Notes: generated from the sequence alone by a model not told the origin. Positions 8,973 through 39,695 are shown, counted from the stretch's first letter. The stretch is DNA of 64,000 bases from an uncultured delta proteobacterium (GCA_963803975.1 CAWDOY010000001.1:157463-221462), one strand, 5' to 3'. A program made the numbers and translations.

Positions 8973-10077
8973 TTATTTCTTGTCCCGCAGCTTTTTTGCT
9001 TCCTCCCACATCTCGCCGAATGCCTTTTCGGTCTTTTCGCTCATGACCTGCCAGATGGCAACCGTCTTAAAGTAATTGTTATTGCCGACATTAAACAGGA
9101 CCTTCTCTTCCGGGGTCACGAGGTCACCCACATTGTTGACCACCGGGGAGACGCCCTGCTGCTTGACCACTGCAGCCTGGAATGTTGGGGACAGCTGCAG
9201 GTTGATCCACTCCTCACACAGTTTTTTCTTCTGTCCTTTAGCTGCCTGGGTAATGCACCAGTAGTCGATCCAGGCAGAGCCGCCTTCTTTTGCGGTCGCC
9301 AGCTTCCAGTGGCCGCCCTTCTGGTTTGCTTTTACTACGGCAAATCCCCATGTGGTTGCCAGGGACAATTGAGGAAACTCATCAGCATTGGCTTCCCCGT
9401 CCCAGAGGCTTTTTGCGCCCTTTGCCAGTTCATTCAGTTTAGGTTGAATTTTGTTTCGGTCAAGCTTATCAATGTCAAAAATGTCCGCGTACTTATAGCC
9501 CAGCGCAAGGGCTGTTATCCAGATGTTGACTTTATGGAAGTTGTTATTGATGGTGTACTTGCCGGCATATTCCGGATTCCAGAAGATATTCCAGCTTGCC
9601 GGAGCCTCTTTTATAACGTCAGTGTTGTACGCCAGTCCATAGGGGCCGCAGTTGTACGGGAGGCCATAGCGTTTATCCCCGCTGGTGAGCGATTTGTCTG
9701 CTTTGAAAAACGGCAGCATGTGTTTGGCATTGGGAATATTTTTCATGTCAAGGGGAGATCAGCAGTACGCTGCCTTTGGTGAAGCAGTAGAACCGGGGAG
9801 TTTTCGCCATATCAGCCGGGGGTGAAATCATGTCCGCGGTACCGTTCTTGGCAGCGTTATAAAAATCTTCCTGGCCGGTGGCGTACGTGGTTTTTACCTC
9901 CACGTCCATTTTATATTTTTCTTTCACCAGGCTCTTAAAAGCTTCAATAACCGCCTTGTCGGCATAGCCTTCCCAGCAGGTGATGTTTATGGTTTCCGCT
10001 GCTGCGAACGTTGTCCCGGGCAGTCCTGCCAGCGCGAGCACCACGGCTGCCAGCATCATGAGAATTAAATTTTTCAT
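8973..10077 (-). CDS. PotD/PotF-like extracellular solute-binding protein (frameshift near 9750)
   Basis: Signal peptide, INITCWEGYAD, YGLPYNCGPYGLAYN, PASWNIFWNPEYAGK, KEGGSAWIDYW. Confidence 0.8.
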
Positions 10078-10256
10078 AGAGTCCTCCTTTAGCGGTTAAT
10101 AATAATTGAATAGCGGCTCTTTCTGGTGCAGACACCTCATGTTTCTGCGTTCACAGAAGAGCATACCCTTGCCTGAAGGCGACAGCCATACTGTTGATGT
10201 AATGGCTTATGCATCACCCCCTCTCACTTACGTCACGATTGCCATCTTAAGATATA

Positions 10257-11274
10257 TTACCAGCGGCTTGCAATAATGCCGCTGCAAAACGACAGAAGTC
10301 CGATACCCAGCAGAACCGGCGAGAGATAAAACCATGCAGGCTCTGTCGCTTTTGTGTATTCAACGGTCCGCGCATGTTTCACGATGGCTTCCACTACCCG
10401 GTCTTCGCACCGTTCTTCACTGACCCGGAAATAGCTGCCGCCGGTAGCCGCGGCAATCTCCTTCAGCGTATCTTGCTCGATCCGGGTCTTCAGATAGGTA
10501 CCTTCTTCGTCCGTGTAGTAGTCGACAATAGAGGTGCCCTCCGCGTCCCGTATGGGAATGAGCACACCCTGTCCCATGCCGGTGCCGATGGTGTATATGA
10601 ATAATTCCCAGGGCAGCCGCACGCCGGGCCGCCTCAACGAGTGCCGACGGATCATCGCTGATGTCCTCGCCGTCCGAAATGAGGATAAGCGCCCGGGCCC
10701 GTTTTACGGAAACGTCGGCAAGGAGCGCGACCCCGGTCATTATTGCCTGGCCCAGATCGCTTCCGGGTATGGTAATGGTTGTATCATTTAAATGTTTCAG
10801 CAGATACTGGCAGTAGCCGTAGTCAGTTGTGGAGGGTATTACCTCAACGCCCCTGCTGGCAAACATGAAGACCCCCACACGCTCGCCCCTGAGCGCTGAG
10901 AGGATATTCAGCGCGCAGTAGCGGGCGCGGTTGAGCCGGTTGCGCACGGGAAACAGCTTTTGCCCTTCCGGCGGAATCATTTCATCTTCTGCGAGCATTG
11001 ATTTTGAGACATCAATGCCGAGCGCGATGTCAATGCCGCCGCGATTGAAGACGGTCCGCAGGTACTGCAGCTTCGGCTCAGCCAGGCACAGAATCAGTGC
11101 TATGAGGCTGATGCTTAAAAACAGGGTTGCTGCCGCAAAGGAAGCAAGGCTCTTTTTTTTGCCGGCAAACCTGACCAGCCACTGTGATGCAGTCCGATAC
11201 GAAATCAGGGCGCAGCACACAAACAATGGCAGGATAAGCAGCAGCCAGATATATTCGGGATTGTCGAGCGCCAT
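10257..11274 (-). CDS. membrane-anchored vWA protein, MxaL/BatB-like (frameshift near 10610)
   Basis: N-terminal TM helices, MIDAS DVSKSM, GSDLGQAI, LISDGED, C-terminal TM helix. Confidence 0.85.
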
Positions 11275-11290
11275 TCTGCACAACCTATCA

Positions 11291-11439
11291 GGCTGTTGAA
11301 AAATACCCATCTGCTTCGTTGCGCTCATTCCTCGTCATTGCGACGTACGGTACAGTACGTCGCTTTCTTCAGGATTTCGCGTGCCGTGCGTCTGGATGTT
11401 TATGACCAGCCCGGGAGAAAACTACTTTTACAACAACCC
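11291..11439 (+). mobile_element. ~150-bp MITE-like element, copy 1
   Basis: Ends GGCTGTTGAAAA...TTTACAACAACC; close inverted copy at 37006-37150. Confidence 0.75.
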
Positions 11440-11441
11440 GC

Positions 11442-12200
11442 CTATTTTTTGATTTTTGTCTCTACCGGCTCCCCGGGAGCGTAGCCACCCATTTCAGGGA
11501 TGAGTGTTTCAAGATTTTCTTTCAGCGCCTGGTTTTTTTCGAGATCGGTTTTGACCGCCTCGATTTTTTTAACGTACTGCTCGCTGTTGAGCAGCTCGAA
11601 ATTCCAGCGCGGTATATTTTTATCCATGGCAGCTGCCCCGGTTTTGTCCACCGCGTCAATGGCGGCCTTGTAATCCGAGAGCGCGTCACGTATCACGCCC
11701 TGGACTTTGTCGGCGTTTTTTTCTTCATCAAGCATGACAAAGGCCTTCAGCAGCCTGGCTGAGGCGGCAACGTTATACAGCTGCCACATAACCTCCGGCC
11801 GCAGCTCACCGCCGCCGGTCAGCGTGCTGCTGCAGCGGTCAAGCATGGCGTCAAGGTGCTCCTTCAGGCGGGCGTTGTAGACAGGGACATCCTGCTCCAG
11901 CGCAGCATTATAGCGGCACATCTGGACAGATTTCAGCAGTGCCAGGGCGCTATGCCACTGCCGCTGCAGGATCCGCAGCTGCACTTCAGGCAGGGTGGCT
12001 CCGAGCTTCAGGTATGCGGCCGTTGCCCGGGCGTCATCGGTTATGGCATCAGCAGCTTCAACCTCCTGCTGAAACGTGCGGCTGTTGCGTTCGCGCTCCC
12101 TGAGGCTCTGATAACGGGAGATGTTTATGATGCTGTACAGCAGCGACAGTGCGGCCGTGAGCACGGCCCCATACATCATTAGTGTGCGTTTTCCAGTCAT
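11442..12200 (-). CDS. membrane-anchored helical/TPR-like protein, MxaK-like
   Basis: N-terminal TM helix, LYNVAA...YKAAI...PRWNFELL; lies between two vWA genes. Confidence 0.6.
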   Translation of the reverse strand: MTGKRTLMMYGAVLTAALSLLYSIINISRYQSLRERERNSRTFQQEVEAADAITDDARATAAYLKLGATLPEVQLRILQRQWHSALALLKSVQMCRYNAALEQDVPVYNARLKEHLDAMLDRCSSTLTGGGELRPEVMWQLYNVAASARLLKAFVMLDEEKNADKVQGVIRDALSDYKAAIDAVDKTGAAAMDKNIPRWNFELLNSEQYVKKIEAVKTDLEKNQALKENLETLIPEMGGYAPGEPVETKIKK

Positions 12201-12206
12201 GGTTGA

Positions 12207-13310
12207 TCAGATTTTTCTGTAATAAGGGTTTATCTGTAAAAAACAGTATATAAGGAGCGCGCAAAGGGTGCACGCGCCAAGGATCCAGCGCGTATCCTTT
12301 TTGCGCTTAACAATTTTTTCCAGGAAGCGGTTCTTTTCCATGGCATTGATTTCATTGTAAACCTCGGTGATTTTCTGCCTGCTGAAAGTCCGCGGCATGT
12401 AGAATATGTGCCCGGCCGTGGATTCTCCCTCAGGCCCTTCAAGGGCGATACGTATGTCGCTGGTGACGTCTCCCGCCACCACAATAAGATACAGTTTAAT
12501 CCCGAGCTGCTTGACCAGTGCCACCACGTTGAGAAAATTGAGCAGCCCCTTTTTCGCATCTTCCTCACTTTTGCTGGCCTCTATGCGGCCGTCGGTAAAC
12601 AGCACGATGGCCATTCCCTGCCCGAAATGAATCTTTTTCAATTTCTCCGGAATGGCTATGGAAGCGCCTGATCTGCCCACCAGCGCGTAGCGCAGGTCGT
12701 TTATCTCCTCGTAGGAGGGCTGATCTTCCTCCGGCAGCAGCATGAAGAATACGCATACGGCAAGCCAGGCAGCGTAGGACGCATTGGTTGCGCCGCCCAC
12801 GGTCAGCTCCCGGAAAATATAGGAATCAGCCCGCCTGCTCAACAGCTCAAGCTTTTGCTTCAGAATGCTCTTATCAAAAGCAGGGGGGGCGATTACCCTG
12901 GCAAAGCTTGAAAACGCCACAATGCCGATCAGATCATCCGTGCTGCGCATATCGATAAACGCGCGCGCGCCATCGAGCGCCACATCGCCGAGCGTGATGC
13001 GGCCGCCCTCATCGCCGGGCCTTCCCATGGAGCCGGAAAGATCCTGCACCAGCATGATCCATTTGGATTCAAGAAATGTCCTGTGCCAGTAGCTGGAGTA
13101 CTGGATGTTGGCTATGGCAAAAACGATGAGCACCATGACGAGCCCTGCCAGCATGTCCGCTGCGTACTTTTTTACAGGCCCTGGCTCAAGGCTGCTGCCC
13201 AGCATCGCGACCCGCGAAAATCCGGTTTTAACAGACGTTTTTTTCTGCAGGTACAGCACCGCCGGAACAAGCGCTAACAGGAGCAGTGCCCATGGGTATT
13301 GAATGCTCAT
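12207..13310 (-). CDS. vWA protein, MxaC/BatA-like
   Basis: QYPWALLLL N-terminus, MIDAS DLSGSM, DLIGIVAFS, GATN, VLFTDG, C-terminal TM helix. Confidence 0.9.
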   Translation of the reverse strand: MSIQYPWALLLLALVPAVLYLQKKTSVKTGFSRVAMLGSSLEPGPVKKYAADMLAGLVMVLIVFAIANIQYSSYWHRTFLESKWIMLVQDLSGSMGRPGDEGGRITLGDVALDGARAFIDMRSTDDLIGIVAFSSFARVIAPPAFDKSILKQKLELLSRRADSYIFRELTVGGATNASYAAWLAVCVFFMLLPEEDQPSYEEINDLRYALVGRSGASIAIPEKLKKIHFGQGMAIVLFTDGRIEASKSEEDAKKGLLNFLNVVALVKQLGIKLYLIVVAGDVTSDIRIALEGPEGESTAGHIFYMPRTFSRQKITEVYNEINAMEKNRFLEKIVKRKKDTRWILGACTLCALLIYCFLQINPYYRKI

Positions 13311-13320
13311 AGCGTGTATC

Positions 13321-14918
13321 TTACGCTGCTGCCTGCGACCCGGTCAGGTCAAGCAGACGCAGGATTTCCATTCTGATCTGATCGATCTCCGGGCAGCTTT
13401 CCTGCTCAAGGGCGACAGCGTTATCAATGGCTGCCAGCACCGTCTCCAGGGGGTCAAGATACTGCCCGGGGATATAGTTCCTGACGCTGTCGACAAAGTA
13501 GTGCGCGCTGCCGCCGGGCAGTGTACGGCTGTTGCCGTAGCGAGCCACTACATACTCGCGCAGCAGCGTTCCCGCCTCGTGAGATAGTGCCAGTGGGCGT
13601 GCGCGGGGGCAGCCTGCACCAGCACCCGCAGCCGTTCAGCAAGCAGGTCTTCTCTGGTCCGGAGCGTGAGGAGCCGCTGTTCTTGCCGCTGCCGGAAGAA
13701 TAGAACAGCTACCCATCCCAGGCACAGGATACACACCAGCAACCCTCCCGCTGCCTGCCACAGGCTGCTCTGCGCCTGGTAATGCAGGGCGGAAGCCTGA
13801 TAATCGGGCTGGACAGGCTTTGAGGGCACCAGCAGCCGGAACTCCTCTTTCACGGCCGGGACCATGGACGCGACCCGGAATGGTATTGGCCGGGTCTCCA
13901 CAGAGCGAACGGTCTCCCCCGAACAGGCGGGGCAGGTATAGCTCACGGTGACCGCCGGAATTACAAATTCGCCGGGGGCGAAGAATTTAATGCGACCCGT
14001 GATGATAACCGGGCTTTTGCTGATGACCTTGGTATAATCATAGGGGTCAAAGCTGCAGTCAAAGAGCTCCTTTTGAATAGACGCGGGCCGGAGATTGATG
14101 TTTGCAATAGAGCTGGGGTCGATGCTCACCCGGTCGGAAAACAGGATGGTAAAGGTAAACGGGACCGTGTCACCGATGCGCCCGCCACTCATGGCAAGCG
14201 CCAGCTGCACTCTGATGGAAGGCTTAAGCTCTACGAGATAGGGCCTGGCCCGGAGCACGCTGATATCTTCAGCGAGCAGGTTCAGCGCCTTGAAAAACGG
14301 GATTTCGAGAACATTCACCCGGTAGATGTTCTCTTTTTCATCGTACCCTGCCTGCGCCTGCTTCAGCAGGGCAGCTCTTCGCTCCCGGTCGGCACTTGCC
14401 TTCCACTCCAGGTCAAAAATATTGAAAAACGCCCAGGTTTTATCTTTAAGGATTATGGCCGGGTGAGTATAGAGCACCGCTTCGTCCTGGTTGAGCTGGT
14501 TTATGATTTCTTTCAGCTCATCCCGCTTCAGGCCCTCGCGCAGCCGGAAAAAGCAGGCGTCCTCGGCGATGTTTGCGTCATAAAAATAGTCAATAAGGCT
14601 GCTGCGGCTTTTAATGAGCGCTTTTGCTTTCTCCGGGATAAACGTGTCGTAGGTGTCCTCAAGTCCGTTGGCCGCACCGGCGTAGCGGGAGTCAAACACG
14701 ACGGTGAGCCACGTCATGCTGATGTCAGGCATTATTTTAGTGCTGCCATCATAAAACCAGATGTCGTCGAAGTTGAATGGGGCAGGAGCTTTTTTCTCCA
14801 GGGCGTTCGCGCTGAAGCGCGTCACTGCGGCGGCAGGAGCATGGACTGCCGAAATGCCGAGCGCCACGAGGAGCGTGATACAATATTTTTTTGTTAAGCA
14901 GTGTTTCCTACTGTGCAT
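13321..14918 (-). CDS. exported, membrane-anchored MxaA/BatD-like protein (frameshift near 13570)
   Basis: Signal peptide from MHSRKH, Ig-like APGEFVIPAVTVSY, TM helix LWQAAGGLLVCILCLGWVAVLFF. Confidence 0.6.
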
Positions 14919-14956
14919 AGAACTATAGCCGAAGATTATTTGTAATTTGTCTGTCT

Positions 14957-15092
14957 CACCAGTACCCCCTCTGACTCCCCCTTGGCCCATCGGCCGTGAG
15001 CAACTCGGCCTTGAACTCGTTGCCGAAAGGCTCAGGGCCGAACGGCAGGGGGAGAACATTGCCCCTTCTTACCAAGGAGGGGCAGGGGAGGT
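14957..15092. repeat. nested REP-like palindromic element
   Basis: CTCCCCCTTG...CAGGGGGAG and CCCCTTCTTACCAAGGAGGGG arms; the first encloses a further nested hairpin TCGGCC.TGAGC...GCTCAGGGCCGA. Confidence 0.6.
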
Positions 15093-15154
15093 CGATAAAT
15101 GCACTATAATACTTCCTGAGAGATAAATTCTCATATCTATATATGTGTAAGAAT

Positions 15155-16032
15155 CTAATAGGTTAACGGAGCCCGTTGCATGAACTCATGTAACTTGTTG
15201 GTACGGTCATCTTCAGGCGTTATCGTCACCAGGGGAATACCGGCCCGTAAGAGTCGGTTGCCCAGCGTCTCCCGCCCCTGCGCCATGGTTTCATTATAAG
15301 CCTTCCATTTGCTCACATCAAGCAGCCTGGTTGCGCCGGTTTCATAATCATAGAGCGGCAGCAGGCCCCGGGAGTACGGGGGCAGCGCCACCTCGCTTTC
15401 TTCAAGCACCTGCACTGCCTTCACATCGTGTTTGTTGGTGCCGTGGACCGTGCGGTGGAAGCTGTAGCTGAAGTCAAGCGGATACATGAAGTCCGACAGA
15501 ATAAACGTCAGGCTTTCGGGGACTTCAGTGACCAGCTTGGTCAGGGCGATCTGCAGGCTGGTGGAGCGGCACGCCACTGGTTCCGCGCGGGCAATGGCCG
15601 CAAGAATCTCCATGAAATGAGACCGGCCCATGCGCGGCGGAATATAGCTGACGATGTCATCGGCGAACAGGATCAGCCCGCAGCCGTTGTTGCTCATGAT
15701 GGCGCTGTAGGCAAGCGACACCGCGATGTGCGCCTGGAGCAAGCTCCTTGCGGCCGAAGCTCACTGATGCTGCTGATGTCGTAGAGCAGCATGACGTTGA
15801 AATAGCTTTCGGCAAGGTACTCCCGCACGTAATATTTCCCGGTCTTTGCTTTTGCCTTCCAGTCGATGTTTTTAAACGGGTCGGTCGGCTCAAGCTCCCG
15901 CAGCGACCAGAATTCATAGCCCAGGCCTTTGAAGGTGCTTTCCCAGTCACCGGGAAACGGCGCGTTCACCCGGTGATTGATAAATATATCAAGCAGCTCT
16001 TTTTTTGACAGCAGGCTCTGTTCTGTTTTCAT
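15155..16032 (-). CDS. DUF58 (MxaS-like) protein (frameshift near 15745)
   Basis: GLGYEFWSLREL...DPFKNIDWKAKAKTGKYYVREY, DISS, FILSDF. Confidence 0.9.
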
Positions 16033-16040
16033 AGTGCCCG

Positions 16041-17064
16041 TCAGTACGGCCGTATGGTCTGCAGTATCTCCTGCACCAGCATGTCGGAGGTTATCTGCTG
16101 GGAAAGGGCACTGCTGTTGAGCAGGATGCGGTGCCTGAGGACGTGAACTGCACAGGTGGCCACATCATCAAAGGTGACAAAATCCCGCTGCCGACAGAAG
16201 GCATAGGCCTTTGCCAGCGCCAGCAGCGACTCTGTCGCACGCGGCGAGGCCCCGAGCCGGATATACTGGTGCACCTCGCTGGCTGCAGCCTGCTCTTTAT
16301 AGGTTTCATTCGGCCGGGTGGCAATGCAGATATTTAAAATGTAGTTCATGACCTTCCGGCCCACCCGCACCCGGTCATGGATGAGCTGCTGGATGGCAAT
16401 AATATCCTCAAGGCTGAAAACCTTCTGCACCGCTGCTTTCAGCTGGTCGAAATTGGAATTTTTTCTCTGCATGCAGCTCAAACTCCTCATCCTTGTGCGG
16501 ATACCCGACATCATATTTTACCATGAACCGGTCAACCTGGGATTCCGCCAGGGGATAGGTGCCGATCTGCTCAATCGGGTTCTGGGTCGCCAGCACCATG
16601 AAGGGATTGGGTATCGCATAGCTCAGGCATTCGATGGTTACTTCCTTTTCCTGCATCGCCTGCAGCAGCGCGGACTGAACCTTCGGCGATGCGCGGTTTA
16701 TTTCGTCGGCGAGAAAAATGTTGCAGAAAACGGGGCCGAAGTAAAAATCAAATTTCCTGTCCTTCTCATTCCACACCATGGTGCCGGTTATGTCGCTGGG
16801 CATCTTGTCCGGGGTGAACTGGAAGCGTTTGAAATTGCCGCTGATCACTTTTGCAAAGGTTTCAACAACAAGGCTCTTTGCCAGGCCCGGGACCCCCTCC
16901 AGCAGTATATGGCCCTTTGCCAGAAGCGCATACAGTATGAGGTTGATCATCTCCTCCTGGCCGATCACAACTTTTGCGATCTCAGCTTTTACCTGCTGGA
17001 TCTGTTGTGCATACCGGGTGAACTGCTCTTTCGTGCCGTCACCCGCTGTCACCTGATTCTGCAT
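16041..17064 (-). CDS. moxR: MoxR family AAA+ ATPase (frameshift near 16460)
   Basis: HILLEGVPGLAKS, FLADEINRASPKVQSALL, ATQNPIEQIGTYPL, GASPRA, VLRHRI. Confidence 0.95.
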
Positions 17065-17106
17065 ATGAAAGGTCCCCGTTGTTACGGCATCAGCATACCA
17101 GCCATG

Positions 17107-18148
17107 CTACATATATTCAAACCGCTTGCGGTACTTTATAATCAAGATAGAGAAAAAACGGGCCGCCCAGCAGCGACGTGACAATCCCGATCTTCAGGTC
17201 AACCTTAACGATAAGCCGGACAAACAGATCGGCATAGATAATAAAGACTGCCGCCAGCAGCCCGGCAAAGAAAACGAGCTTCCGGTTGTCCGGGCCGATC
17301 AGGCTGCGCATAATGTGCGGGGCAATCAGCCCGACAAAACCGATAACTCCCGATACGGCAATCGCGCCCCCGGTCTCGATGGATGAAAATAAGAGGAGCG
17401 CATTGCGTGCCTGCTTGATATTGACGCCCAGATTGGACGCTGTTTCTTCTCCGAGCATGAGGATATTCAAATCCCTGACATAGAACAGGGTCCCTGCCAG
17501 CGCTACGACCGTGGTGGGGAATACTATGCTCACATGCTCCCAGGAGCGGTTGTTCAGATCGCCCATGAGCCAGGTCACGATCACCCGGCCCACATCAAAC
17601 TCCCTGGTGCTCAGGGTGATGACAAAGGAGGTCAGTGCGCCGAATACTAAATTGAGCGCTATCCCCGCGAGCAGCAGCGTTGATACCGATGTCTGCCCCC
17701 GGGAGGTCGCGATGGCAAAGACCATGACCAGCGTCAACACGGCAAACAGTATGGCGGCAAGGGGCAGGGCAAACAGCGAATGGGCTGCCAGGCCGGCATA
17801 GATCGCCAGCACCGCGCCCAGCGCCGCCCCTGAGTCAATACCCATAACCCCCGGGCTTGCCATGGGGTTCTTGAAGATTCCCTGCATGATGGTGCCGGCG
17901 CCGCCGAGAGAAAATCCCACCAGAAGCGCAACCAGGAAGCGGGGCAGCCTGCCGTCCCAGACGATGGCGGCTTCAACGTCGCTGACGCTTCCTGTATAGA
18001 ACCCGAGTTTTGCAAGAATAATTTTAAATACATCTATAATGGCAATGGGCCACTCCCCTGACGTCAGGGTAAAAAAACCCCCCAGTACAATGAGCCCTGA
18101 CAATGCGCCGGCCAGCAGCGCTTCTGAAGCCTTAGGGCTGTTGCGCAT
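17107..18148 (-). CDS. FecCD/BtuC-family ABC transporter permease
   Basis: RLPRFLVALLVG, QGIFKNPMASPGVMG, LGEETASNLGVN, GVIGFVGLIAPH. Confidence 0.9.
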
Positions 18149-19181
18149 ACAAAACTCCGGCAAGCAGATCGGCGCTTAAGAGCATGAACTGGGAATCAAC
18201 CCGCAGATACACCCCGGGAACATAATACACTTTTCCCTGTTTATGGCCTGCGCAAAGGAGAGAACCTTATTGGACATCAGCAGCTCTCTCAGCTTGCTTC
18301 CCCGGGGAACGATAATAACATCGGGGTTCCATTTAAGCAGTGTTTCATTATCAATCTGCGACCAGGATTTAATGCCCTGCTCAGCCCCGACATTAACGGC
18401 GCCGATGATGCTGCAGATGGAATTAAAGTTTGATGACCGGCCCGGGATATACCCGCCTTCATCGTAATAGAGCACACGAACCGGCTTGTTGCCACCGGGG
18501 ATGTCTGACTTCAGTGCCGCGATTTTTGCATCGATTAGATTAACCAGTGCCTGCGCATTGGCTCTCTTCACCGACAATTTTTCCGATGAGCAGGATCTGC
18601 TCTTTAATGGACTCAATTGATACCAAAATAGCCGAGGTCAAAACAGGGGATCTTCGCCTGTCTGAGCTTTTCTTTAAAATCAGCGCCGGAATAAAAAACG
18701 GTAAAGACCAGGTCCGGCTGAAAGCCGATAACCAGCTCTGTCTGTTTTGATTTAAAAATCGGGCCCCGCTGCCGTACTTCATCTGCAATAAAGCTGAATT
18801 CAGGATCAGCGGAAAATTCATTGAAGGCTACCAGCCGCTCACGCGGGCAGATTGCCCATAATATCTCTGCAACGCCCACCGCGTGGGGAATTATGCGCAC
18901 GGGCTGCTTCGCCAGGGTGAACGCTTTTTCTTCCTGCGGAAGGCATCAGTCTTAAAATCATACACCTTGAAGGTATAGGGTATGGTGCGCGGCCAGCTGT
19001 TGGTTTGCGCTTCACCCCTGACCAGGCTCAGCGCTTTTTTTAAATCATTCATGGGCAGGGGAGGGGAACCGTCCGGACTGCGCGCTGCCCCGCCGCGGGA
19101 GAGCAGCAGGCAGCAGAGACAGCAGGCCAGGTTACTGAGAAGCTTCGCGCACGCTGCAGACCACCGACGACTGTTATGCAT
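18132..19181 (-). CDS. BtuF-like (type III) periplasmic binding protein (several frameshifts)
   Basis: RIIPHAVGVAEILWAI, ELVIGFQPDLV, WSQIDNETLLKWNPDVII. Confidence 0.8.
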
Positions 19182-19938
19182 AAAAATCGAGAAAAGTGGC
19201 GCTGTCATTTTTGATATTCCCGTACCTGCACATCAAATACCTGTTTAATATTCTCCGGGGAGAACGCATCCTGCGGCGAGCCGGTATAAAATATTCTTCC
19301 CGCGATGAATAATTGATATCGTATCGCAGAATTTTCTGCGCAAGGTTCAGATCGTGCATGGTTACCAGGATGGTTTTGCCCTGCGCCCGCAGTTCGAACA
19401 GAATGTTCATAATTGCCAGCGTGTGCTTGATATCAAGCTCGGCGGTCGGCTCATCCAGCAGTATCAGGGATGCTTCCGTTGCCAGGGCGCGGGCGATTAT
19501 CGCCAGCTGGCCTTCTCCGCCGGACAGCTCATTGATGATTCGGTCCTTTAGTGCATACATAGCGGTCTGCTGCAATGCCCGCTCGATTATTTCCCGGTCC
19601 TTCTGCTGCACCCCTTCAAAGCGTCCCAGATGCGGGTTGCGCCCCATGGAAACAATATCAAACACCGAGATGGGAAAACTGACCGCGGTGTTTTGCGGCA
19701 CCAGCGTAACCAGCCTGCTCAGCTCTTTTCTCGGTATGGTGCGGTAGTTTTTGCCCTCTATCAGGATGGTGCCGGACTGCGGCTCCCATATCCGGCAGAC
19801 ATTTTTCAGCAGGGTTGATTTGCCGGAGCCGTTCGGGCCGATGATGCCGTGAATTTTGCAGGGTTCAAAATGGACTGAAACCCCGTCAAGGATTTTTTTA
19901 TCTTCAATTGAAAAATGGATATCCTGTATTGTGAGCAT
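19174..19938 (-). CDS. BtuD/FecE-type ABC transporter ATPase
   Basis: GPNGSGKST, GRNPH, LSGGE, LLDEPT. Confidence 0.9.
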   Translation of the reverse strand: MLTIQDIHFSIEDKKILDGVSVHFEPCKIHGIIGPNGSGKSTLLKNVCRIWEPQSGTILIEGKNYRTIPRKELSRLVTLVPQNTAVSFPISVFDIVSMGRNPHLGRFEGVQQKDREIIERALQQTAMYALKDRIINELSGGEGQLAIIARALATEASLILLDEPTAELDIKHTLAIMNILFELRAQGKTILVTMHDLNLAQKILRYDINYSSREEYFIPARRRMRSPRRILNRYLMCRYGNIKNDSATFLDFYA

Positions 19939-19950
19939 ACGGCAACAGTC

Positions 19951-20734
19951 CTATGAGCACAGCCTGAATTTGTATGCAACCGGCAGAATAAATTTTGCTA
20001 CCACGACACAGAAGAAACCAAAATATACGGATATGCTTATTGCCGCTGCTGTCAGGTCCGGGGAGAATTCAGCGGTTATGCCCAGTGCCGCCCAGATGAA
20101 AATCTGCCCCAGCAGCAGCTGAAAGTTCTGGGCCAGGGTATATATTACCCAGAAGTTCTGCGAGAGCTTGAAAATTTCGCCCCTGCGGATTTTTATCTCA
20201 ATGATTTTAAACCAGGTCCGGCCCTCAACAATCTGGGACGATCCGTCGCACACATGGTGCAGCAGATACAGTACTACCAGCAGGTGGGGAGCAAAAGAGA
20301 GGCTCTGAAAGAAGTATTTAAAAACCGGCGGAAAGCACAGCAGCAGGCAGACTGCCCCCAGGGACTGGCCGATGGCGATTGCCCACCTGCGCCCTGATTA
20401 AGCGGGGAATCTGCAGGCGCGGGTCCTGCGCGACCTCCAGCTGATCTATGAATTCCGATGTGTAGGTGCTCGAAATCATGGTTATCCCCGGATAGGCGTA
20501 TTTCACCAGCACCCCCAGGATTGCAGCAACTTTCAGCTCCTGCTCGGCCATTAAAAACATGGTATAGAGAATCACGCCGTCAAGGATGTTTTTCCCGATA
20601 GTATAGCAGATATTGCCCGCCTCGCCATAGCGATAAAAGGGCACTGAGATAAGGGCTGAAATATATAATTTTATTTTTTGCGGTAAAGCCGGGGGTGTGT
20701 AGCCGGGGTATGTTGTTGTCTGGTCTTTTTCCAT
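19951..20734 (-). CDS. uncharacterised polytopic membrane protein (frameshift near 20385)
   Basis: ORFs 20318-20818 and 19951-20253 join through hydrophobic IAIGQSLGAVCLLLCFPP...LLVVLYLLHH; several TM segments. Confidence 0.6.
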
Positions 20735-20812
20735 CTGCAGAAGCTCGGCAATGGCTCTGACCTGTTTTGAAGAATCCCGGTGGTGCTGTCTATTCGGGGA
20801 AGAAACAAACGA

Positions 20813-20853
20813 AAGCACAAAAGGGGCACTGACTGCATGCCCCTTTTGTGCTT
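20813..20853 (-). terminator. intrinsic terminator after eutBC
   Basis: 16-bp perfect inverted repeat AAGCACAAAAGGGGCA/TGCCCCTTTTGTGCTT. Confidence 0.75.
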
Positions 20854-20859
20854 CAAGGA

Positions 20860-23147
20860 TTAACTTGCCTGCATTATTTCTTTGAGCAGTTTTACCGTCA
20901 TTTTAGCAGCCTCTTCAGGCTTTGTCGCCTGGTTGGAGATGCCGCACACGACTTTCACGATATTGTGGTCGCACTTCTTTTCTGCCCAGACTGTTGCCTT
21001 GGGCGCTGCGATATACACGGAGAATGCATTCTGGCCGGTGCCCGGCCGTTCGCCAATTATATGAATAACAGCTTTGTTCTTATTCGGGTCTGATTTTCCG
21101 AACAGAATATCGCCCGCCATGTATACCCGGCCCGCACGCGGCCGCTGGTACAACAATGTTCTGCTCCCCAACGGTCAGCCTGCATCTTTGAGCTCTTTTC
21201 TCACCTCGTAATATATGGCATGAGATGTCCCTGAGCCATGATTGAATTGGCGTTTAACCCGTCAGAGATAACAATCTGCACATCAGGATCTTTCCCTGCC
21301 CATGAATCCCGCAGCTTTTCAAGGGTTGCCACTGACTGCTCGTTCAGTTGTTCACCGGTAGTGGGACGGACAATGTAGTTTTCGCGGTCCTTCGACAGGG
21401 TAGCAAGCTGAACTGCATTGGGAATGGTCTTTATAAACTCCGGGGTAAACTCCGCCCAGATAGCTTTTTTGGCATCAGCGTAGAGTTCACGTATCCTCTT
21501 GTCCAGTCCCGGATTCAGATCCCAGATATTTTTACCATATCCGGAGGCCAGAGGTACTTTGTTTCCGGTCTCAAGCCACGTATTATAAATAGCATCAAAC
21601 TTCTGTTTGCCTTCAGCATATATTTCCTGTTCAGAGCGCTTGTCGCCTTTAGCTGCGCAGAACTGATAATATACCCAGATGGGATCTCCGAAGTGCTTGG
21701 TGGGTTTGCCGTTCTTGTCAATAACCTGGATGCGCTTGAAGAATTCCCACATGGCATCATTTACCTTGAAGCCGAATTTGTTGCGCAGGCGCACATGGTC
21801 CTGGTATGAGGTAGTCAGGTAGCTCAGCATCGGGTCATTCCTGGTAGGAAGAGCCATGAGATAGGCCGGGTTTGCCGGCATAATCTGATCCTGGCACCAC
21901 TGCAAGGTCATCAAGGCTTACTGACATGTGCAGGGTGGAGCAGATATCAAGGCCGGAAGTGAGCCCCTGCAGTTTGCCCATTAATATATCTTCAAGGCAG
22001 CAGCGCACCAGCTGTTCCTTGGTTCTGAACACCTCCGGGCCGATGAAACCGGCAACATCATTAAAATGAGTATAGGCGCCCTGCGGCTGGACTTCAGCAA
22101 GGGTCTGTTTCAGCCCGCGGGCAAACCCGTACTTGCGGGATTCAAGCACCACCATGTCCACGCCTTCAGCAGCGCCGTTGGTGAAATCAGAGCCCTGGCC
22201 GGTCTCGTAATACAGCCCGTATCGTCTGATCCTTGCGGGCTTTTGCATGATTGACCATCTTTTCAACGGTCACGTCAAACACCTTGTTTGCCGCGTCAGT
22301 TCCTGCCAGGCTCTGGAAGAAAAAATCAACCAGTTCCGGCTTCTCTTTAAAAAGTTCCCCCTGCACGTCAACATGGGATAACACGCACCAGGGAACAATC
22401 CCCTTTAATTTGAACGCATCGACAACATCCTTAAGGGCTGCTTCTACTTTTGCAGTTTGTTCTTTTGTCCCGTCCACCGGGTTAGTCCCGAGCACTAAAT
22501 CGCCTACCGCGTAGGAGAATCCATTAAGTGTCTGCCAGATAATTTCCTCGGGATCATCAGTGGGGGAATTGGGCTGAATGCGGGCGCTCAGATAGCCTTT
22601 GGCCCCGATCTTGGTGCCGGGCAGCGGATTGAAGATTTTCTTGTCTACCGCAATCAGCTCCTGATTGCTCATGAGTTTGGGCATACAGCCAACCACCTCG
22701 CTGTTCATGCCGTACATGACTGCCTTGATTTCAGCTTCAGGCTTGGTCAGGAGATAGGTTTTCATCTTCCCCATGGTCCAGTCCTTAATTTTTTCGTACT
22801 GGGCCGAATCAGTTGCTTGGGCGATAAATTTGTAAAGATTGTCATTAAGCAGGGGGTGCTCCGTGATATCCTTGATTTTGGTATTAGCTAAAAGCTTACG
22901 GGCATTTTCCCTGCTGGTATTATCGTCGGCAGCATACGCCGATTGCCTGGTCACCCTCTTTAAAGGCATTTGCCGCACCGATTACCTGCTGATACAGTGT
23001 CTGGTCAAAAGAACCCTTAACCCGTTCAATATATTTGAAGACATCTTCACCGGGTTTGACGTCCTTAATGGCGATGGCACTGCTGTACGTGCTGAAAGCA
23101 AAAACCCCGAGGGCAATCATCGCTGTGATCGCAATAAATCGTTTCAT
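20860..23147 (-). CDS. eutBC: fused EutB-EutC ethanolamine ammonia-lyase with N-terminal signal peptide (5 frameshifted ORF pieces)
   Basis: EutB motifs ARIQPNSPTDD, GTNPV, YETGQGS, VAGFIGPE, LEDILMGKL, MLSYLTT; EutC motifs RPTTGEQL, DVQIVISDGL, IGERPG. Confidence 0.9.
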
Positions 23148-23256
23148 ACGCTGATCCCTCCCATATAAAATAGGTTATTCAGGTTGTTTGCGTCCTGCTC
23201 GGTAAAACCCAAGACTCAATTTTTATAATTATTTGAGCATTTACTTCTTGCGCAAG

Positions 23257-23290
23257 TAAACAACCCCGCCTTTTCAGGCGGGGTTGTTTA
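23257..23290. terminator. hairpin between the porin-like gene and eutBC
   Basis: TAAACAACCCCGCC-ttttca-GGCGGGGTTGTTTA. Confidence 0.7.
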
Positions 23291-23327
23291 GCTGTACGCT
23301 TCTTTCAAATCATAGTTGTCAGTCAGC

Positions 23328-24153
23328 TCAGAAAGCCACTTTAAGAGTAACGCCGCCATAGACCCAGCTGGAATTTGTATTTGAGTCGGGGCCGCGTGTT
23401 ATAGCATTGAAACTGCTCTGTCTGATATTGGTCTGCGCTTTATTGCTCATCGGACATGAGTAGTTAATTGACGGCACGATCGTTACAAAGCTGTTGAGCG
23501 GGATGTTGTATGCCGCCCAGATGTTGGCGTCGTGCATGGCCTCGTAGTCGTAACTCGTGCTGTTGATGCTCATGTAGCTGATCCATCCGCCCACATCCAG
23601 AGACTGTTCTCCGCAGTAACCGAAGATTTCTCGTTTGCCCGTGGAAAAAGAGTGGGATACCCCTAAATTAATATACCAGCGGTCTCCGCCCAGGGCTATT
23701 TCCCGGTATATGCTGAGGGTCGGCTTGAGCAGCACATCAAGGCCCAGGGTCGTAAACAGTTCCTGGCTGGCTCTGGTGATACGTGGAGGGATCGATATCG
23801 TAATAGATGTAGCCGAAGGTGTAGTTCAGTTTTTTCCAGCTGTTGCTGTAGGTGAGTATCCAGTCTGTTTCCCACCATTTATTCTGGGAATCTTCCCCCG
23901 GGTTCCCCTTATATGCGGTATCAAGATCGCCCCACATATTCATGCTGAACCCCTTGTAGGAAACGGTAATGGAGGGGAACATCACCAGGCTGTCCTTGCT
24001 CAGTTCATACCCTCTCCACACATACTTTGAATAGAATGTCCAGGAGAGGTTGCAGGTAGGCCGCTCCTCCTTGTCCTCCTGGGCAAGCACCGCGGTGCTG
24101 AACGAAAACACCATGAGGCCAAGCATAATTGTTAGAAGAATTTTTTTACCCAT
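23328..24153 (-). CDS. putative outer-membrane beta-barrel porin (TorF/TIGR02001-like; frameshift near 23760)
   Basis: Signal peptide, SKYVWRG, ETDWILTYS, GYIYYD, C-terminal GVTLKVAF. Confidence 0.7.
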
Positions 24154-30421: not shown

Positions 30422-30450
30422 TTGACACCGTCAAACTAATGGAGTATTAA
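30422..30450 (+). promoter_or_regulatory. sigma70-type promoter of the riboswitch leader
   Basis: TTGACA-N17-TATTAA directly upstream of the riboswitch. Confidence 0.65.
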
Positions 30451-30454
30451 TTTT

Positions 30455-30622
30455 AACATAAAGGTACCTGCTATGGTTTAAAAGGGAAGATGGTGAGAAT
30501 CCATCATGGTCCCGCCGCTGTGATCGGGGACGAAATCCACGTAATGCCACTGTCCTGAGATGAATCGGGATGGGAAGGTTTGGAGAGTAGGATGATCCGA
30601 AAGTCAGAAGACCTGCCTTTAT
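30455..30622 (+). ncRNA. cobalamin riboswitch
   Basis: AAAAGGGAA..GGTGAGAATCC...CCCGCCGCTGTGA, GCCACTG, GGGAAGG and B12 box AAGTCAGAAGACCTGCC, upstream of cob genes. Confidence 0.95.
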
Positions 30623-30676
30623 GATAGCAGTCGCGGAACTCGATCCTTGCATAAAAGGGTGAAGTAAACTGGGTGC

Positions 30677-30718
30677 AACCCTCAGGCTGTAGTTATGACC
30701 TGAGGGTTTTTGTTTTTT
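30677..30718 (+). terminator. riboswitch expression-platform terminator
   Basis: AACCCTCAGG-loop-CCTGAGGGTT followed by a T-tract. Confidence 0.85.
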
Positions 30719-30904
30719 GAACCAGATGAACCACAGTAGGACACAGAGGTTACATTGTATAATTTTGATTTGTCTTCTGGGTCGTCCCTGTGATGTTTTA
30801 ATAATTACAGCTATTTACATAACGGTTATTCTGCCATCGGCGAGCGCTCAGAGAACCGCAGTATTGGGGGAATTAGATTCTTCTGAGATCTCAGTGGTTA
30901 TCTT

Positions 30905-31435
30905 ATGTCCGAAAAAACTCTCACACTCGTCACCGGCGGCATCAAGAGCGGAAAAAGCTCCTGGGCGCAGCAGCAGGCTGAGCGCTTAAGCGGCACCAGG
31001 GCGTTTGTCGCGACCGCACAGGCGCTTGATGATGAGATGAAAGACCGCATCGCAAAGCACCGGCAGGCACGGGGGGATGCATGGGTAACCTTTGAAGAGC
31101 CAAAAGACCTGGTGCCGCTGGTGGATGATATAACCGGCAGGTTTGATATCATCCTGATCGACTGCCTGACCATATGGCTGTCAAACCTGCTCACGATCTA
31201 CCGGATGGATGAAGAGGCGGCAGCGCAGCAGATTGCAGGGCTCAGCGCATGTTTCAGCCGGGCCGCGTCCCGGGTATTTGTTATCTCCAATGAAACCGGC
31301 ATGGGGATAATACCTGCTGATCCGCTTTCCCGGCTGTACCAGCGACTTCTGGGCAGTTTGAACAGCGAGGTTGCCGCGGCAGCGGACGAAGTTTATCTCA
31401 TGGTCTCCGGCATCCCGGTGAAGATAAAACCGTGA
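30905..31435 (+). CDS. cobU: adenosylcobinamide kinase / guanylyltransferase
   Basis: LVTGGIKSGKS, RIAKHRQAR, LIDCLTIWLSN, SNETGMGIIP. Confidence 0.95.
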   Translation: MSEKTLTLVTGGIKSGKSSWAQQQAERLSGTRAFVATAQALDDEMKDRIAKHRQARGDAWVTFEEPKDLVPLVDDITGRFDIILIDCLTIWLSNLLTIYRMDEEAAAQQIAGLSACFSRAASRVFVISNETGMGIIPADPLSRLYQRLLGSLNSEVAAAADEVYLMVSGIPVKIKP

Positions 31436-31647
31436 CTCGTGGCACGTGATTCGTGACTCGAGGAAACGAAACAAAGAGAAGTGCGGATTGCGGAACTGAA
31501 AAAGGCAACAGGCAATAGTGCACAAAGTAATTGCGGATTTGAGATTGCAGCGTGCAGATTTAAGTAAGGTACAGAAAATAAAGCTGATAGCTGACAGCTG
31601 TCAACTGATAGCTTACTTGAACAACTCAAAACTTAAAACTAAAAACT

Positions 31648-33184
31648 ATGCACTGCAGCATACTGCTTCTGGAACATCCCCGGCCTTCCTCGGCAATCCA
31701 TTTCAATGACGTGGCCAATACGCCCCTGTCATCGGGGCTTTTGAGCGGCTATATTTCATCGCTGCTTGAAGCGCGGGGCGTCTCCGTGAGCCTGCATGAA
31801 GCATATCCCTCTGCCGGGTCTTTCCAGGACTGCGCAACAGAGCTTGACCGCCTGGAGTTTAGCGTTCTGGGCGTCAACGCAGTATATCTCTGGGAGAAGA
31901 CCGAAGAGCTGTTTTCATTCTTAAAAAACTGAAGGCCCGCCGTCCGGACGTGTCCGTGATCCTGTACGGCTTTTTCCCCACCTTTTCCTTCCGTGAAATT
32001 CTTTCCCAATACCCGTTCATTGACTGCATCATTCTGGGTGAGCCCGAGGAAACTTTTGCTGACATAGCCGCAAGCCTGCAACAGGATGGCTGCATTGATT
32101 TTTCAAAAATACCGGGTCTTGCCTTTCGGGAAAACGGGAAGGTCACCACCTCGGGAGAGAGGGCGCTCATCGAGCCGCTTGACCGGCTGCCGTTCCCTGA
32201 GCGCAGCGAGCAGTTCCTGAAAACAGTCGGCGGCAATATTCTGGCCAGCCGGGGCTGCTACGGCCAGTGCAGTTTCTGCTATATAAATTATTTTTACGGG
32301 CACGGCTGCCAGTGGCGCGGCCGCTCCCCGGATAATGTGGCGCAGGAGATTGAAGAGCTGTATCCGCGCCTGCCGGAGCCCTCTATCTATTTTGTCGATG
32401 CGAATTTTTTCGGCCGCGGAAGCCTTGGCCGCACGCGCTCGCAGGCTATTGTCGAGCGCATTAAAGACTGGAGCGATCTCAGCTTCGGCATCGAGTGCCG
32501 CAGCAATGACCTGGATGAAGAACTTGTCAGCGCTATGGTGCAGGCGGGCTTGCGGCAGGTATTCCTGGGCATTGAGAGCGCATCAAAAGCATCGCTTGCG
32601 CGCATGAAAAAAGGGGTGCGGCTGGATATGCAGGCGGCGGCAGTCAAAATGCTGCAGGCCCATGGGGTAGAGATTAACCTCGGGTTTATAATGTTTGAGC
32701 CTGATACTGCGCTTGAAGATGTGCGGCTAAATTTTCAATTTTTGAAAGACAATGGCCTGCTGGACTCTCTCTCCTGCACGGCTAATGTCCTCTATCACCG
32801 GGAAATTGCACTGCAGGGAACTGAGCGTTTCAAACTGCTGCAGGCAGAAAACCGCCTGCAAAAAATCGACCCCCTGGGGTATGAAGGCAGCTACTGTTTT
32901 CTCCAGGAACCGGTCCAGTTCCTGGCAGACCTGATGGATAGCGTATGCCGGGGCTGTTTTGCAAAAAATGGATAACTGCGAGCTCCCCGATTTTCTGGGG
33001 CAGGGAAAGCTCCGCGGCAGCGCTTCGGCTGAATGCTTACCTGGTCTATTTCTTTGAAGAGGCGCTGCGCAAGCTTGAGCTGAAGGAGCTGTTGCTGACT
33101 CATGAGGAGCGCATGCGCTGGGAAGAGCGGGCCTTGGCAGTGGTCGACGGGCTGATCGTATCCGAGCGGGTGTGCCAGCTGTGA
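31648..33184 (+). CDS. B12-binding radical SAM enzyme, BzaD/BzaE-like (frameshifts near 31925 and 32960)
   Basis: N-terminal B12-binding-like region, GEPEET, ASRGCYGQCSFC, FVDANF, FLGIES; lower-ligand gene context. Confidence 0.8.
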
Positions 33185-34184
33185 AAGCTTCACCCGCAGC
33201 GGACTTTGAGCGGCTCTATGCTTTAGGGACCGGGTTCCAGGCCTCTGAAATTATTTTTACGGCAGTCAGGCTGGGGATTTTTACCGCGCTCGATGCAGGG
33301 CCGGCTACCAGTAAAAGCCTGGCCGGAAAATTACATCTCTCGCAGGATGCTCTGGCCAGGTTCATGCGCGCTTTGAAAAGCATGGGGCTGATAGCGGAGC
33401 GCAACGGGGCATACAGCAAAACCGCGCTCTCGCGGCGCTATCTGGGAGCAGCCGCAGGGAGAACTGCGGTGATATGCTGATACATCTTGAAACGCTTAAG
33501 TCTTCGTGGGCAAACCTTTCTTACAGCTTAAAGAAAGGCACCATGCATGCTCCCGCGGAAAGAAGCCCTGGCAGATTATCCGCGGCAGCTGAAGCGGTTT
33601 CTCGCTGCGATGCACGCCTCAGGCGCTGATTAAGAGCGCGGCCATAGCGAGAGCGTTTCCGCTGCGGCAGATATTGCCGCATGCTTGATATCGGCGGCGG
33701 CATGGGAACCTATGCTGTTGCCTTTGCGCAGAAAAACAGCCGCGCTGCAGGCAACAGTGTTTGATCTTGAGAGCGTGGTGCCGCACGCAAAAAAATATAT
33801 CAGGCAGTGCGGGATGGGCAGGCGCGTGAGCGTGGCTGCACGGTGAATGCCTGTCTGATCCGTTTCCGGGCAATGACTATGACCTGGTGCTGCTCTCAAA
33901 TATCCTGCATATTTATGCAGCCAGGGGATGCGCGCTTTATTATTAAAAAAGCAGCGCAGGCATTACAGCGCGGCGGCACCCTGCTGATTCATGATTATAT
34001 CACCGGCTCCGGCGACCAGATCTTTGTCTCTCTTTTTGACATGACCATGCTCACCGGGACGCCGGAAGGAAGATGCCACGCACGGACTGATCTTTGCCAA
34101 TGGATGAAGGCTGCCGGGCTTTCCCGCATCCGGACAAAAGCGGTGAATGCCGGCACTTCGATTATGTGGGGAATTAAGGAATAG
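33172..34184 (+). CDS. bzaC: SAM-dependent O-methyltransferase with dimerisation domain, BzaC-like (frameshifted)
   Basis: TAVRLGIF winged-helix N-terminus, LDIGGG.GTY, DLVLLSNILH, GGTLLIHDY; adjacent to cobT and bzaF. Confidence 0.65.
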
Positions 34185-34330
34185 GCACAAAGGCACAGAG
34201 GCAGAAGGCACAGAGGCAGATAGAGGCAAAGAGGCAGATAGGCAATAGGTAAAAGGATGAGTCATGATCGTACGGCTGAACCGAACCTTTAACCTCGAGC
34301 CTGTTCACTATTCACTGTTCACTGATAGCG

Positions 34331-35392
34331 ATGGATCTACAGACAGCACTTAACCAGGATAGAGCCGCTTGATGCGGCGTCTTTGCAGAAAGCGCAGGAG
34401 CGCCTTGACCAGCTTGCCATACCGCGCGGCAGCCTGGGGAGACTGCTTGACATCGGCAGACAAATTGCCGGCATCACCCGGCAGCTGAAGCCGCGCATTT
34501 CCCGGAAAAGAATATTTACCCTTGCCGCGGACCATGGTGTTGTCGCGGAAGGGGTGAGCGCATTTCCCAAAGAAGTGACCCCGCAGATGGTATTCAATTT
34601 TCTTCGCGGCGGAGCGGGCATCAATGTTCTGGGGCGGCATGCCGGGGCCGAGGTGCAGGTTGTTGACATCGGCGTTGATTTTGAGTTCCCGCCGCTTGAG
34701 GGTCTTATCCGGCGAAAAGTCGCGCGCGGCTCCCGGAACATGACCAGAGAGCCGGCGACTGACCAGGGATGAGGCAGTGCAGGCCATCGAGGTCGGCATA
34801 GACCTGGTGCAGCAGGCAGTTGCAGAAGGCGTTGATATTATCGGCACCGGCGATATGGGCATCGGCAACACCACCCCGAGCAGCGCTATTATCGCGGCAT
34901 TCTCCGGGCTTCCCGTGGAAAGCGTGACGAGCAGGGGCACCGGCATCAGCGATGCAGGGTCTCGCGGCCAAAATATCCGCCATAGAGCGGGCTCTGGCAT
35001 TGAACCAGCCGGACCCGCGCGACCCGCTTGACGTGCTTTCCAAGGTGGGAGGGCTTGAGATAGCGGGAATTGCAGGCCTGGTAATCGGCGCGGCAGCGCT
35101 TCGCATACCCGCGGTTATCGACGGGTTCATCTCAACGGCAGGGGCCCTGATAGCATGCGAGCTGAATCCTGTCATTGGCCAGTATTTGTTTGCCGCGCAT
35201 CTTTCAGTTGAAAAGGGGCACCGGGTAATGCTTGACAGAATGCACCTGAAGCCGCTGCTTGATCTTGACCTGCGGCTTGGCGAGGGCACGGGTGCTGCGC
35301 TGGGGATGTTTATAGTTGAAGCAGGCGTAAAAGTGCTGACAGAAATGCTCACGTTTGAAGAGGCGCAGGTTACGGATGGACAGCAGGGATAA
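34331..35392 (+). CDS. cobT: nicotinate-nucleotide-dimethylbenzimidazole phosphoribosyltransferase (frameshifted)
   Basis: [44 protein letters not shown]. Confidence 0.95.
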
Positions 35393-36993: not shown

Positions 36994-37001
36994 CGGGGCT
37001 G

Positions 37002-39006: not shown

Positions 39007-39067
39007 AAAATATGCATGCTGATATGCTGACAGCTGTCAGCTGATAGCTTTTCGAAGAGGCTTTTAT

Positions 39068-39694: not shown

Positions 39695-39695
39695 T

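Follow-up and report, generated by a model that had tools for sequence, protein, structure and literature searches.

The stretch of DNA analysed here, referred to as the window, covers 64,000 nt of an uncultured delta proteobacterium (GCA_963803975.1 CAWDOY010000001.1:157463-221462) and carries the gene of a fused ethanolamine ammonia-lyase together with a set of accessory genes. Scanning of the window for open reading frames (ORFs) and protein families confirmed a run of 13 genes, all on the − strand, from position 24153 down to 8973, as regards both the common orientation and the order given in the original prediction. In the 5' to 3' direction the run encodes a porin-like protein, the lyase (EutB and EutC), a membrane protein, the ATPase, PF01497 binding protein and FecCD permease of an ATP-binding cassette (ABC) system and MoxR, followed by a DUF58 protein, an exported anchored protein, a von Willebrand factor A (vWA) protein, a 252-aa protein, a second vWA protein and a PF13343 binding protein (Table 1). 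This cluster is real and conserved and does not represent an artefact.

Most genes of the run are frameshifted by single-base indels in this assembly. The lyase is split into five ORF pieces at 23147-20860, which, placed one after the other, match a single 760-aa protein of relatives, where intact fusions of 752-760 aa are found; when compared to a relative, its indels lie near 22931, 22224, 21905 and 21209-21125. The cobamide and haem genes located elsewhere in the window and a second lyase copy are frameshifted likewise, and the extra bases at 16472 and 19071-19213 are absent from the contigs of a public DNA run. A pseudogene reading was rejected because the indels occur genome-wide and are missing from other contigs; the frameshifts look like assembly errors. 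Intact orthologues (loci L016/L029, L006 and others) were used in place of the frameshifted window genes. Public RNA runs yielded contigs from relatives only, mostly less than 95% alike.

Ethanolamine ammonia-lyase (EAL), the B12 enzyme splitting ethanolamine, is normally cytoplasmic. Its active-site residues, which we take to be R160, Q162, N193, Y285, E287, V326, F329, D362, M392, L402 and Y404 of the E. coli enzyme, were mapped via alignment to PDB 3abo. All 11 positions are conserved in each of the 49 module-linked lyases carrying a general secretory (Sec) signal, and 10 are invariant in lyases carrying a twin-arginine translocation (Tat) signal, M392 being kept in 47 of 52. The intact orthologue matches PF06751 (1e-147) and PF05985 (9e-35), lies above the NCBIfam cut-off for EutB and below that for EutC, and aligns with the E. 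coli and Listeria proteins (PDB 3abo and 2qez) from residue 52 for EutB and from residue 559 for EutC. By its domains and active-site residues the window lyase is predicted to be an adenosylcobamide-dependent EAL; it shares both of these traits with the E. coli and Listeria enzymes and differs from them by its single chain with a linker, its export signal and the lack of EutA and of a shell.

The export signal was analysed on the best 120 homologues, 117 of which cover the N-terminus. The lyase starts with a positive n-region and a hydrophobic h-region, followed by a small residue at −3 (117/117 homologues) and Ala at −1 (116/117). A hand-made signal rule is passed by 108 of the 117, most of the remaining nine having short-called starts. 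The signal is 52% identical to the reference versus 80% over the following 100 aa and, judging from this comparison, is kept in form and not in sequence. The more distant fusions have twin-arginine signals instead, apart from a few without any signal and some eukaryotic-looking ones with transit-like leaders. The exported EutBC fusion of the original prediction is thus backed by a Sec-type signal conserved across close homologues, and export of the lyase is very probable. All adenosylcobalamin radical enzymes known to us reside in the cytoplasm or in organelles. No exported EAL or adenosylcobalamin radical enzyme was found in the literature, most subscription papers being out of reach. In a separate observation, the eukaryotic-looking fused EutBC proteins (P0122, P0126, P0183 and P0152) include some with mitochondrial-transit-like leaders and one in which the fusion lies behind C2-like domains.

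According to the reading published for Pelobacter carbinolicus, in the accessible part of PMC3543383, the lyase would be cytoplasmic, or tethered to the membrane and facing inwards, the binding and membrane proteins would import ethanolamine and the ABC system cobalamin. The PotD-like nature of the binding protein and the MFS (major facilitator superfamily) fold of the membrane protein agree with these roles, and the Acinetobacter EAL is reported, in the text available, to be membrane-associated without export (PMC9426561). An N-terminus displaying all three signal regions and a nearly invariant cleavage Ala nevertheless argues against this reading. Relatives also replace the signal by twin-arginine signals, an exchange which is sensible only for export. 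A cytoplasmic or inward-facing lyase is accordingly considered very unlikely.

The genes located behind the lyase were then counted according to its export route. All fetched loci provided 127 distinct unbroken fusions, frameshifted or cut lyases (e.g. L035 and L084) being left out, whose signals were labelled by eye as main Sec (62), Tat (52), none (9), separate Sec clade (3) and unknown (1). Among the loci with enough downstream DNA, the gene of the membrane protein, hereafter named half-MFS, lies behind the lyase in 49/56 Sec loci and in 0/43 Tat, 0/7 signal-less and 0/3 separate Sec clade loci; moxR follows in 31/43 Sec versus 0/17 Tat loci, and the anchored-protein gene in 26/36 versus 0/13. 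The genomes of all seven Sec loci without half-MFS hold module genes elsewhere, one of these loci being the second copy of the window genome on contig C48. The helper genes track the export route, Sec lyases occurring with the module and Tat lyases without it. Full-length fusions were also found on 25 rhizobial plasmids (23 Sinorhizobium records, one Pararhizobium and one Ensifer); the two copies examined are of the Tat type and display no module gene within 34 kb. One Tat-type fused lyase (L218, 15965-18313) is located on Sinorhizobium meliloti pSymA. Such Tat versions provide a natural control in a tractable test organism, and the link between export route and module renders the idea directly testable.

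A similar picture emerges from three partly overlapping samples of 201, 61 and 401 genomes. The main-clade Sec lyase is present in 36 genomes (two with the N-terminus cut off), with the anchored protein in 31 and at least one module gene in 35. Neither the anchored protein nor the half-MFS was found in the seven Tat-only genomes (73-100% complete where stated, three from one family). The anchored protein was not found in 184 and in 50 genomes without exported lyase, and 382 such genomes returned one strong match (G492) and three weak ones. In all 13 close genome loci the neighbouring genes stand in order up to the end of each contig, and this order persists even where accessory proteins are only 25-55% identical. 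The synteny between exported EutBC and the ABC and MoxR-vWA genes, on which the original prediction had been made to depend beforehand, is conserved across Desulfobacterota, and the prediction therefore withstands this check.

Table 1. Features of the window (positions counted from its first letter)
Feature	Position	Strand	Basis or remarks
Outer-membrane porin-like protein (Gcw_chp/TorF-like)	23328..24153	−	signal peptide, C-terminal Phe, PF09694; indel split near 23779
24-aa signal peptide of the lyase, Sec/signal peptidase I (SPI) type	23076..23147	−	homologue alignment
Fused EutB-EutC ethanolamine ammonia-lyase (predicted)	20860..23147	−	PF06751 + PF05985; five pieces here, 760 aa intact in relatives
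Terminator-like hairpin, lyase/accessory boundary	20812..20854	−	18 pairs
Half-size MFS-fold membrane protein, ~6 helices	19951..20734	−	structure model and fold search; candidate cobamide exporter or amine permease
Type II ABC importer ATPase (BtuD/FecE-like)	19174..19938	−	family scans
Periplasmic binding protein PF01497 (BtuF/haem/siderophore class), split	18176..19208	−	family scans, PDB neighbours
FecCD/BtuC-family permease	17117..18163	−	family scans, PDB neighbours
MoxR AAA+ ATPase, split, without signal or transmembrane (TM) helix	16041..17064	−	family and hydrophobicity scans
DUF58 (vWA-fold) protein, predicted cytoplasmic, split	15155..16032	−	family and hydrophobicity scans
Exported membrane-anchored MxaA/BatD-like protein	13321..15059	−	structure model, immunoglobulin (Ig)-domain fold match
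vWA protein 1 (BatA/MxaC position), three TM helices, intact metal ion-dependent adhesion site (MIDAS)	12207..13310	−	
252-aa N-anchored protein, MxaK/BatC position	11442..12200	−	synteny, TM scan
vWA protein 2 (BatB/MxaL position), intact MIDAS, split	10257..11328	−	
PotD/PotF-like amine-binding protein (PF13343), split	8973..10077	−	family scans
Cobalamin riboswitch and de novo cobamide/tetrapyrrole cluster, likely cofactor source	30445..55382	+	

This gene list has a published counterpart. The eutBC-2 cluster of P. carbinolicus (Pcar_0469-Pcar_0457), tabulated in 2012 (PMC3543383), comprises by its published list the same 13 gene types (unknown, binding protein, eutBC, membrane protein, ABC trio, AAA_3 ATPase, DUF58, unknown, vWA, unknown and vWA), with a fused eutBC, no eutA and linked cobalamin genes. 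The organism ferments ethanolamine, and the paper describes the fusion as unusual and remarks on the lack of eutA; its accessible part mentions neither a signal peptide nor a periplasmic location and gives no role to the ATPase and vWA genes. A closed genome (G134) displays a two-copy layout like that of P. carbinolicus, with Sec signals on both copies. The label of new system given to the locus was therefore overstated, the block being already listed in that paper; the novelty here lies in the association of the module with the export route.

The accessory proteins were characterized by family scans and structure models. Four of the six porin-like orthologues scanned match PF09694 above cut-off. 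The model of the membrane protein (pLDDT 80.7) has 9jbs as its best fold match (Z 16.6, root mean square deviation 3.4, 207 aligned residues), and nearly all the matches listed by the fold search are MFS proteins, bearing in mind that all-helical models may reach Z values of ~13-14 by chance; by its model, the protein is a half-size MFS fold. A flippase-like family suggested by a protein atlas (score <0.9) was dropped, as the fold search favoured MFS. The ABC trio belongs to the type II importer families of the haem, siderophore and corrinoid type. The best NCBIfam rows for its ATPase and permease are corrinoid models, below cut-off, and the PDB neighbours of its binding protein and permease bind haem or siderophores. 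In locus L016 (13765-14050), the PF01497 protein displays an N-terminal extension of ~70 aa before the domain, shared with distant orthologues, which is possibly a docking part.

No hydrophobic segment was found in the MoxR and DUF58 proteins. Both vWA proteins comprise two N-terminal helices, a C-terminal helix and an invariant MIDAS, and match the Leptospira BatA/BatB models below cut-off. The anchored protein is modelled as a signal, two alpha/beta domains, an Ig domain with a TRAP-like match, a TM helix and a helical tail. A short orthologue devoid of the alpha/beta domains scored 0.94 against an automatically named MxaA cluster, level with BatD clusters and others devoid of a name, and is regarded as a lead only. 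Searching plasmids with vWA protein 1 returned one Bat-like locus and no Mxa reference. The TPR-like (tetratricopeptide repeat) label previously given to the 252-aa protein finds no support in Pfam or NCBIfam, neither of which returned a match. The PotD/PotF-like protein, previously described as an orphan, is a regular cluster member: its gene precedes that of the lyase in most relatives and stands at the 3' end in the window, unlike the Pelobacter block, and no PotABC-type permease was found among the window ORFs scanned. In a single genome (L205, 3560-4873), an exported haloacid dehalogenase (HAD)-family phosphatase, not found in the other loci, is encoded between the amine-binding protein and the lyase and could free ethanolamine from its phosphate in the periplasm.

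The six genes from moxR to the second vWA gene follow the plan of MxaRSACKL (with MxaJ), i.e. MoxR, DUF58/vWA, anchored Ig protein, vWA, small anchored protein and vWA. Further likeness resides in the presumed periplasmic client and in an orphan binding protein nearby. In the published system, as described in the available part of PMC12276312, each of the six genes is required for the periplasmic methanol dehydrogenase to receive its Ca2+. The cargo proposed here would be a cobamide instead of Ca2+, the likeness is one of gene plan, and no PQQ (pyrroloquinoline quinone) dehydrogenase of the MxaFI client type was found among 69 window ORFs scanned. By analogy, the module would work like Mxa without being Mxa. 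The vWA proteins also share the 3-TM layout of Bat proteins (BatA/BatB), as reported in the accessible text for Borrelia BB0173, a BatA-like protein with a periplasmic vWA domain (PMC5700661). Unlike in Bat clusters, vWA protein 1 has a family-specific insert and the module is tied to one enzyme, the generic copy being separate on contig C45. That copy, a moxR-DUF58-Ig/TM-batA-batB cluster, lies at G000:C45:47141-52200. The ATP-driven release of a dead-end ligand proposed here is likened to CbbQO, which frees an inhibitor from Rubisco (PMC4660213, in part), and to EutA (PMC5821096, in part); both act in the compartment of their client, whereas here the force would have to cross the inner membrane.

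A cobalamin riboswitch (30445-30634) followed by cob, cbi and hem genes (30905-55382) begins 6.3 kb away from the run, in agreement with the de novo cobamide cluster previously noticed nearby. Neither of the two cobalamin riboswitches found precedes the ABC genes of the run, which was counted in favour of a cofactor-servicing role. The second one (G000:C9:74441-74631) lies upstream of a broken radical-SAM-like (S-adenosylmethionine) gene and not of a transporter gene. The riboswitch-led cluster also contains a ThiC-family radical SAM gene (35689-36993, +), presumably encoding a benzimidazole-synthesis (Bza-type) enzyme. In line with the original prediction, which stated that eutA and microcompartment shell genes are absent from the window, the 98% complete genome returned no match to bacterial microcompartment (BMC) shell genes and no full-length EutA, only a match over 44/475 positions of a kind also seen in control genomes. 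The EutA matches obtained in six of six genomes were rejected as true EutA, with 44-127/475 positions covered in ORFs of ~420 aa. Lacking EutA and a microcompartment does not set the locus apart; both are also missing from short eut operons with a cytoplasmic lyase, as described in the available parts of PMC9426561 and PMC5821096.

Taken together, the accessory genes are rather probably a cobamide-servicing module for the Sec-exported periplasmic lyase. A Sec substrate crosses the membrane unfolded and cannot carry adenosylcobamide, while a Tat substrate can. The Sec/Tat contrast is a further, independent argument for linking the module with the loading of cofactor in the periplasm, its simplest explanation being that cofactor is supplied and exchanged there by the module. 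EAL damages its own cofactor in turnover, and enterics need the ATP-dependent EutA to remove it (PMC5821096, in the part available). Servicing is proposed since adenosylation takes place and ATP is found in the cytoplasm, and since turnover damages the cofactor. The fused lyase would leave the cytoplasm via Sec and fold cofactor-free in the periplasm. A cytoplasmic MoxR-DUF58 motor, acting through the membrane-anchored, periplasm-facing vWA, MxaA-like and TPR-position proteins, would open the lyase so that cobamide can be loaded or released, in replacement of EutA. The type II ABC importer would bring back spent or scavenged corrinoid for re-adenosylation, and the half-MFS would be the best candidate for adenosylcobamide export, as a homodimer in the complete version of the scheme. 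Tat lyases would acquire their fold and their cofactor before leaving the cytoplasm and would do without the module. A full cycle of export, exchange and reimport across the inner membrane is put forward only tentatively and is rather doubtful. The loading idea of the original prediction has thus gained from the export signal, the synteny and the Sec/Tat contrast, while the corrinoid cargo and the lyase as client are still presumed.

A different role for the MoxR-vWA block would be that of a dedicated helper of a periplasmic lyase for folding, oligomer assembly or metal insertion, the cobamide arriving by environmental diffusion. The same Sec/Tat contrast is predicted in that case and both MIDAS motifs are invariant, although we know of no divalent metal site in EAL. 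That the type II ABC system and the half-MFS show the same pattern, and that de novo cobamide genes adjoin the block here and lie inside it in P. carbinolicus, argues against such a helper. MoxR/vWA systems are described, in the accessible parts of the sources, as inserting Ca2+ (PMC12276312) and non-haem Fe (PMC9976466). This explanation is judged unlikely.

The accessory genes could also be co-inherited passengers in the operon of the lyase, one set scavenging corrinoid or haem and the other acting as a Bat-type chaperone of the envelope, whose client would be another protein such as the porin. Bat-type clusters are widespread without a clear client, and a hairpin parts the lyase from the accessory genes. 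The hairpin previously noticed at 20813 is indeed present (20854-20812, 18 pairs), and a similar one with a T run occupies the same place in 5/5 relatives displayed; under the cofactor-servicing reading, it would hold helper levels under that of the enzyme. The small number of independent events and the broken links listed below are likewise expected of passengers. They would account poorly for a gene order held from orthologues of 25-30% identity up to the window genome, for a generic Bat-type cluster already present elsewhere in the genome and for Tat locus L035, in which the porin and amine-binding protein are retained and the module is not. Passengers are therefore regarded as quite improbable.

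Several points nevertheless weigh against cofactor servicing. The genomes are kin and the contrast therefore amounts to ~2-3 independent events: in a quick IQ-TREE tree of 51 rows, the Tat label needs 3 changes, at least 2 of them forced by well-supported branches, and one Tat group emerges among solo Sec paralogues. The Sec and Tat labels themselves were set by eye, and the 401-genome search scored three candidates per genome. The small separate Sec clade (3 loci; genome G236) is devoid of the module, none of three module genes was found in G025 (91% complete), G514 (94%) has the half-MFS and ABC genes with the anchored protein and vWA protein 1 not found, and G492 (92%, 720 contigs) has the module with the lyase not found. 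The location and activity of the lyase are read from sequence. We know of no MFS pore passing a cobamide, and the PotD-like protein and half-MFS could equally form an ethanolamine uptake pair. The PF01497 protein is nearer to haem and siderophore binders than to BtuF in the PDB and lies under all NCBIfam cut-offs. Tat lyases would have no evident reloading route after cofactor damage, and the Acinetobacter EAL works without any reactivase (PMC9426561, in the part available). A search for a Sec-specific acidic docking residue on the lyase brought out D74 and E588 as candidate docking sites; both also occur in module-less Sec copies and in some Tat copies. A complex prediction between lyase residues 27-760 and vWA protein 1 residues 74-335 scored 0.00 and weighs neither for nor against.

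As for the reaction itself, ethanolamine would enter through the porin, be held by the PotD-like protein and be cleaved in the periplasm to ammonium and acetaldehyde. An aldehyde:ferredoxin oxidoreductase gene is present in 32 of 214 fetched loci, some of them overlapping. Such genes often flank the lyases, and acetaldehyde therefore probably re-enters the cell and is oxidised. Its inward diffusion to the cytoplasmic oxidoreductase would dispense with both charged-amine import and ammonium export. The rationale formerly given, that periplasmic cleavage keeps acetaldehyde outside and removes the need for a microcompartment, is weakened by this probable use and because Acinetobacter needs neither shell nor EutA. 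The second Sec-type fused lyase of the window genome (G000:C48:44000-53600, L018), 74% identical to the intact orthologue of the window lyase and frameshifted at both ends, is followed by six Ech-like hydrogenase genes and an aldehyde:ferredoxin oxidoreductase gene, with similar neighbours in L031 and L035. This unit possibly converts ethanolamine to acetate and H2 with energy conservation.

A Sec-exported B12 enzyme raises the questions of how B12 exits the cytoplasm and how damaged cofactor is replaced without ATP. We know of no client for Bat clusters, and the locus offers the MoxR-vWA module a client with a simple assay. Even for Mxa, the mechanism of the six-gene MoxR-vWA set is stated to be unresolved in the part of PMC12276312 available. 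The full cycle, if true, would make the lyase the first periplasmic adenosylcobalamin enzyme, reveal a first B12 exporter in bacteria and give a module of the Mxa/Bat type a client amenable to assay. A periplasmic lyase would also call for a revision of the ethanolamine scheme published for Pelobacter and would suggest an energy-saving route for low-energy sediment anaerobes.

Two further observations concern the surroundings of these genes. Between the genes of the 252-aa protein and of vWA protein 2, a short palindromic element (~11289-11370) displays a very high contig depth in four runs and is probably a repeated intergenic element. Upstream of the porin, at 24244-25247 (−), two exported proteins are encoded, one with a cupredoxin-like fold and one of 150 aa, which are kept only in close relatives (L005, L011, L016, L127, L141 and L152); the cupredoxin-like protein has paralogues on contigs C3 and C8.

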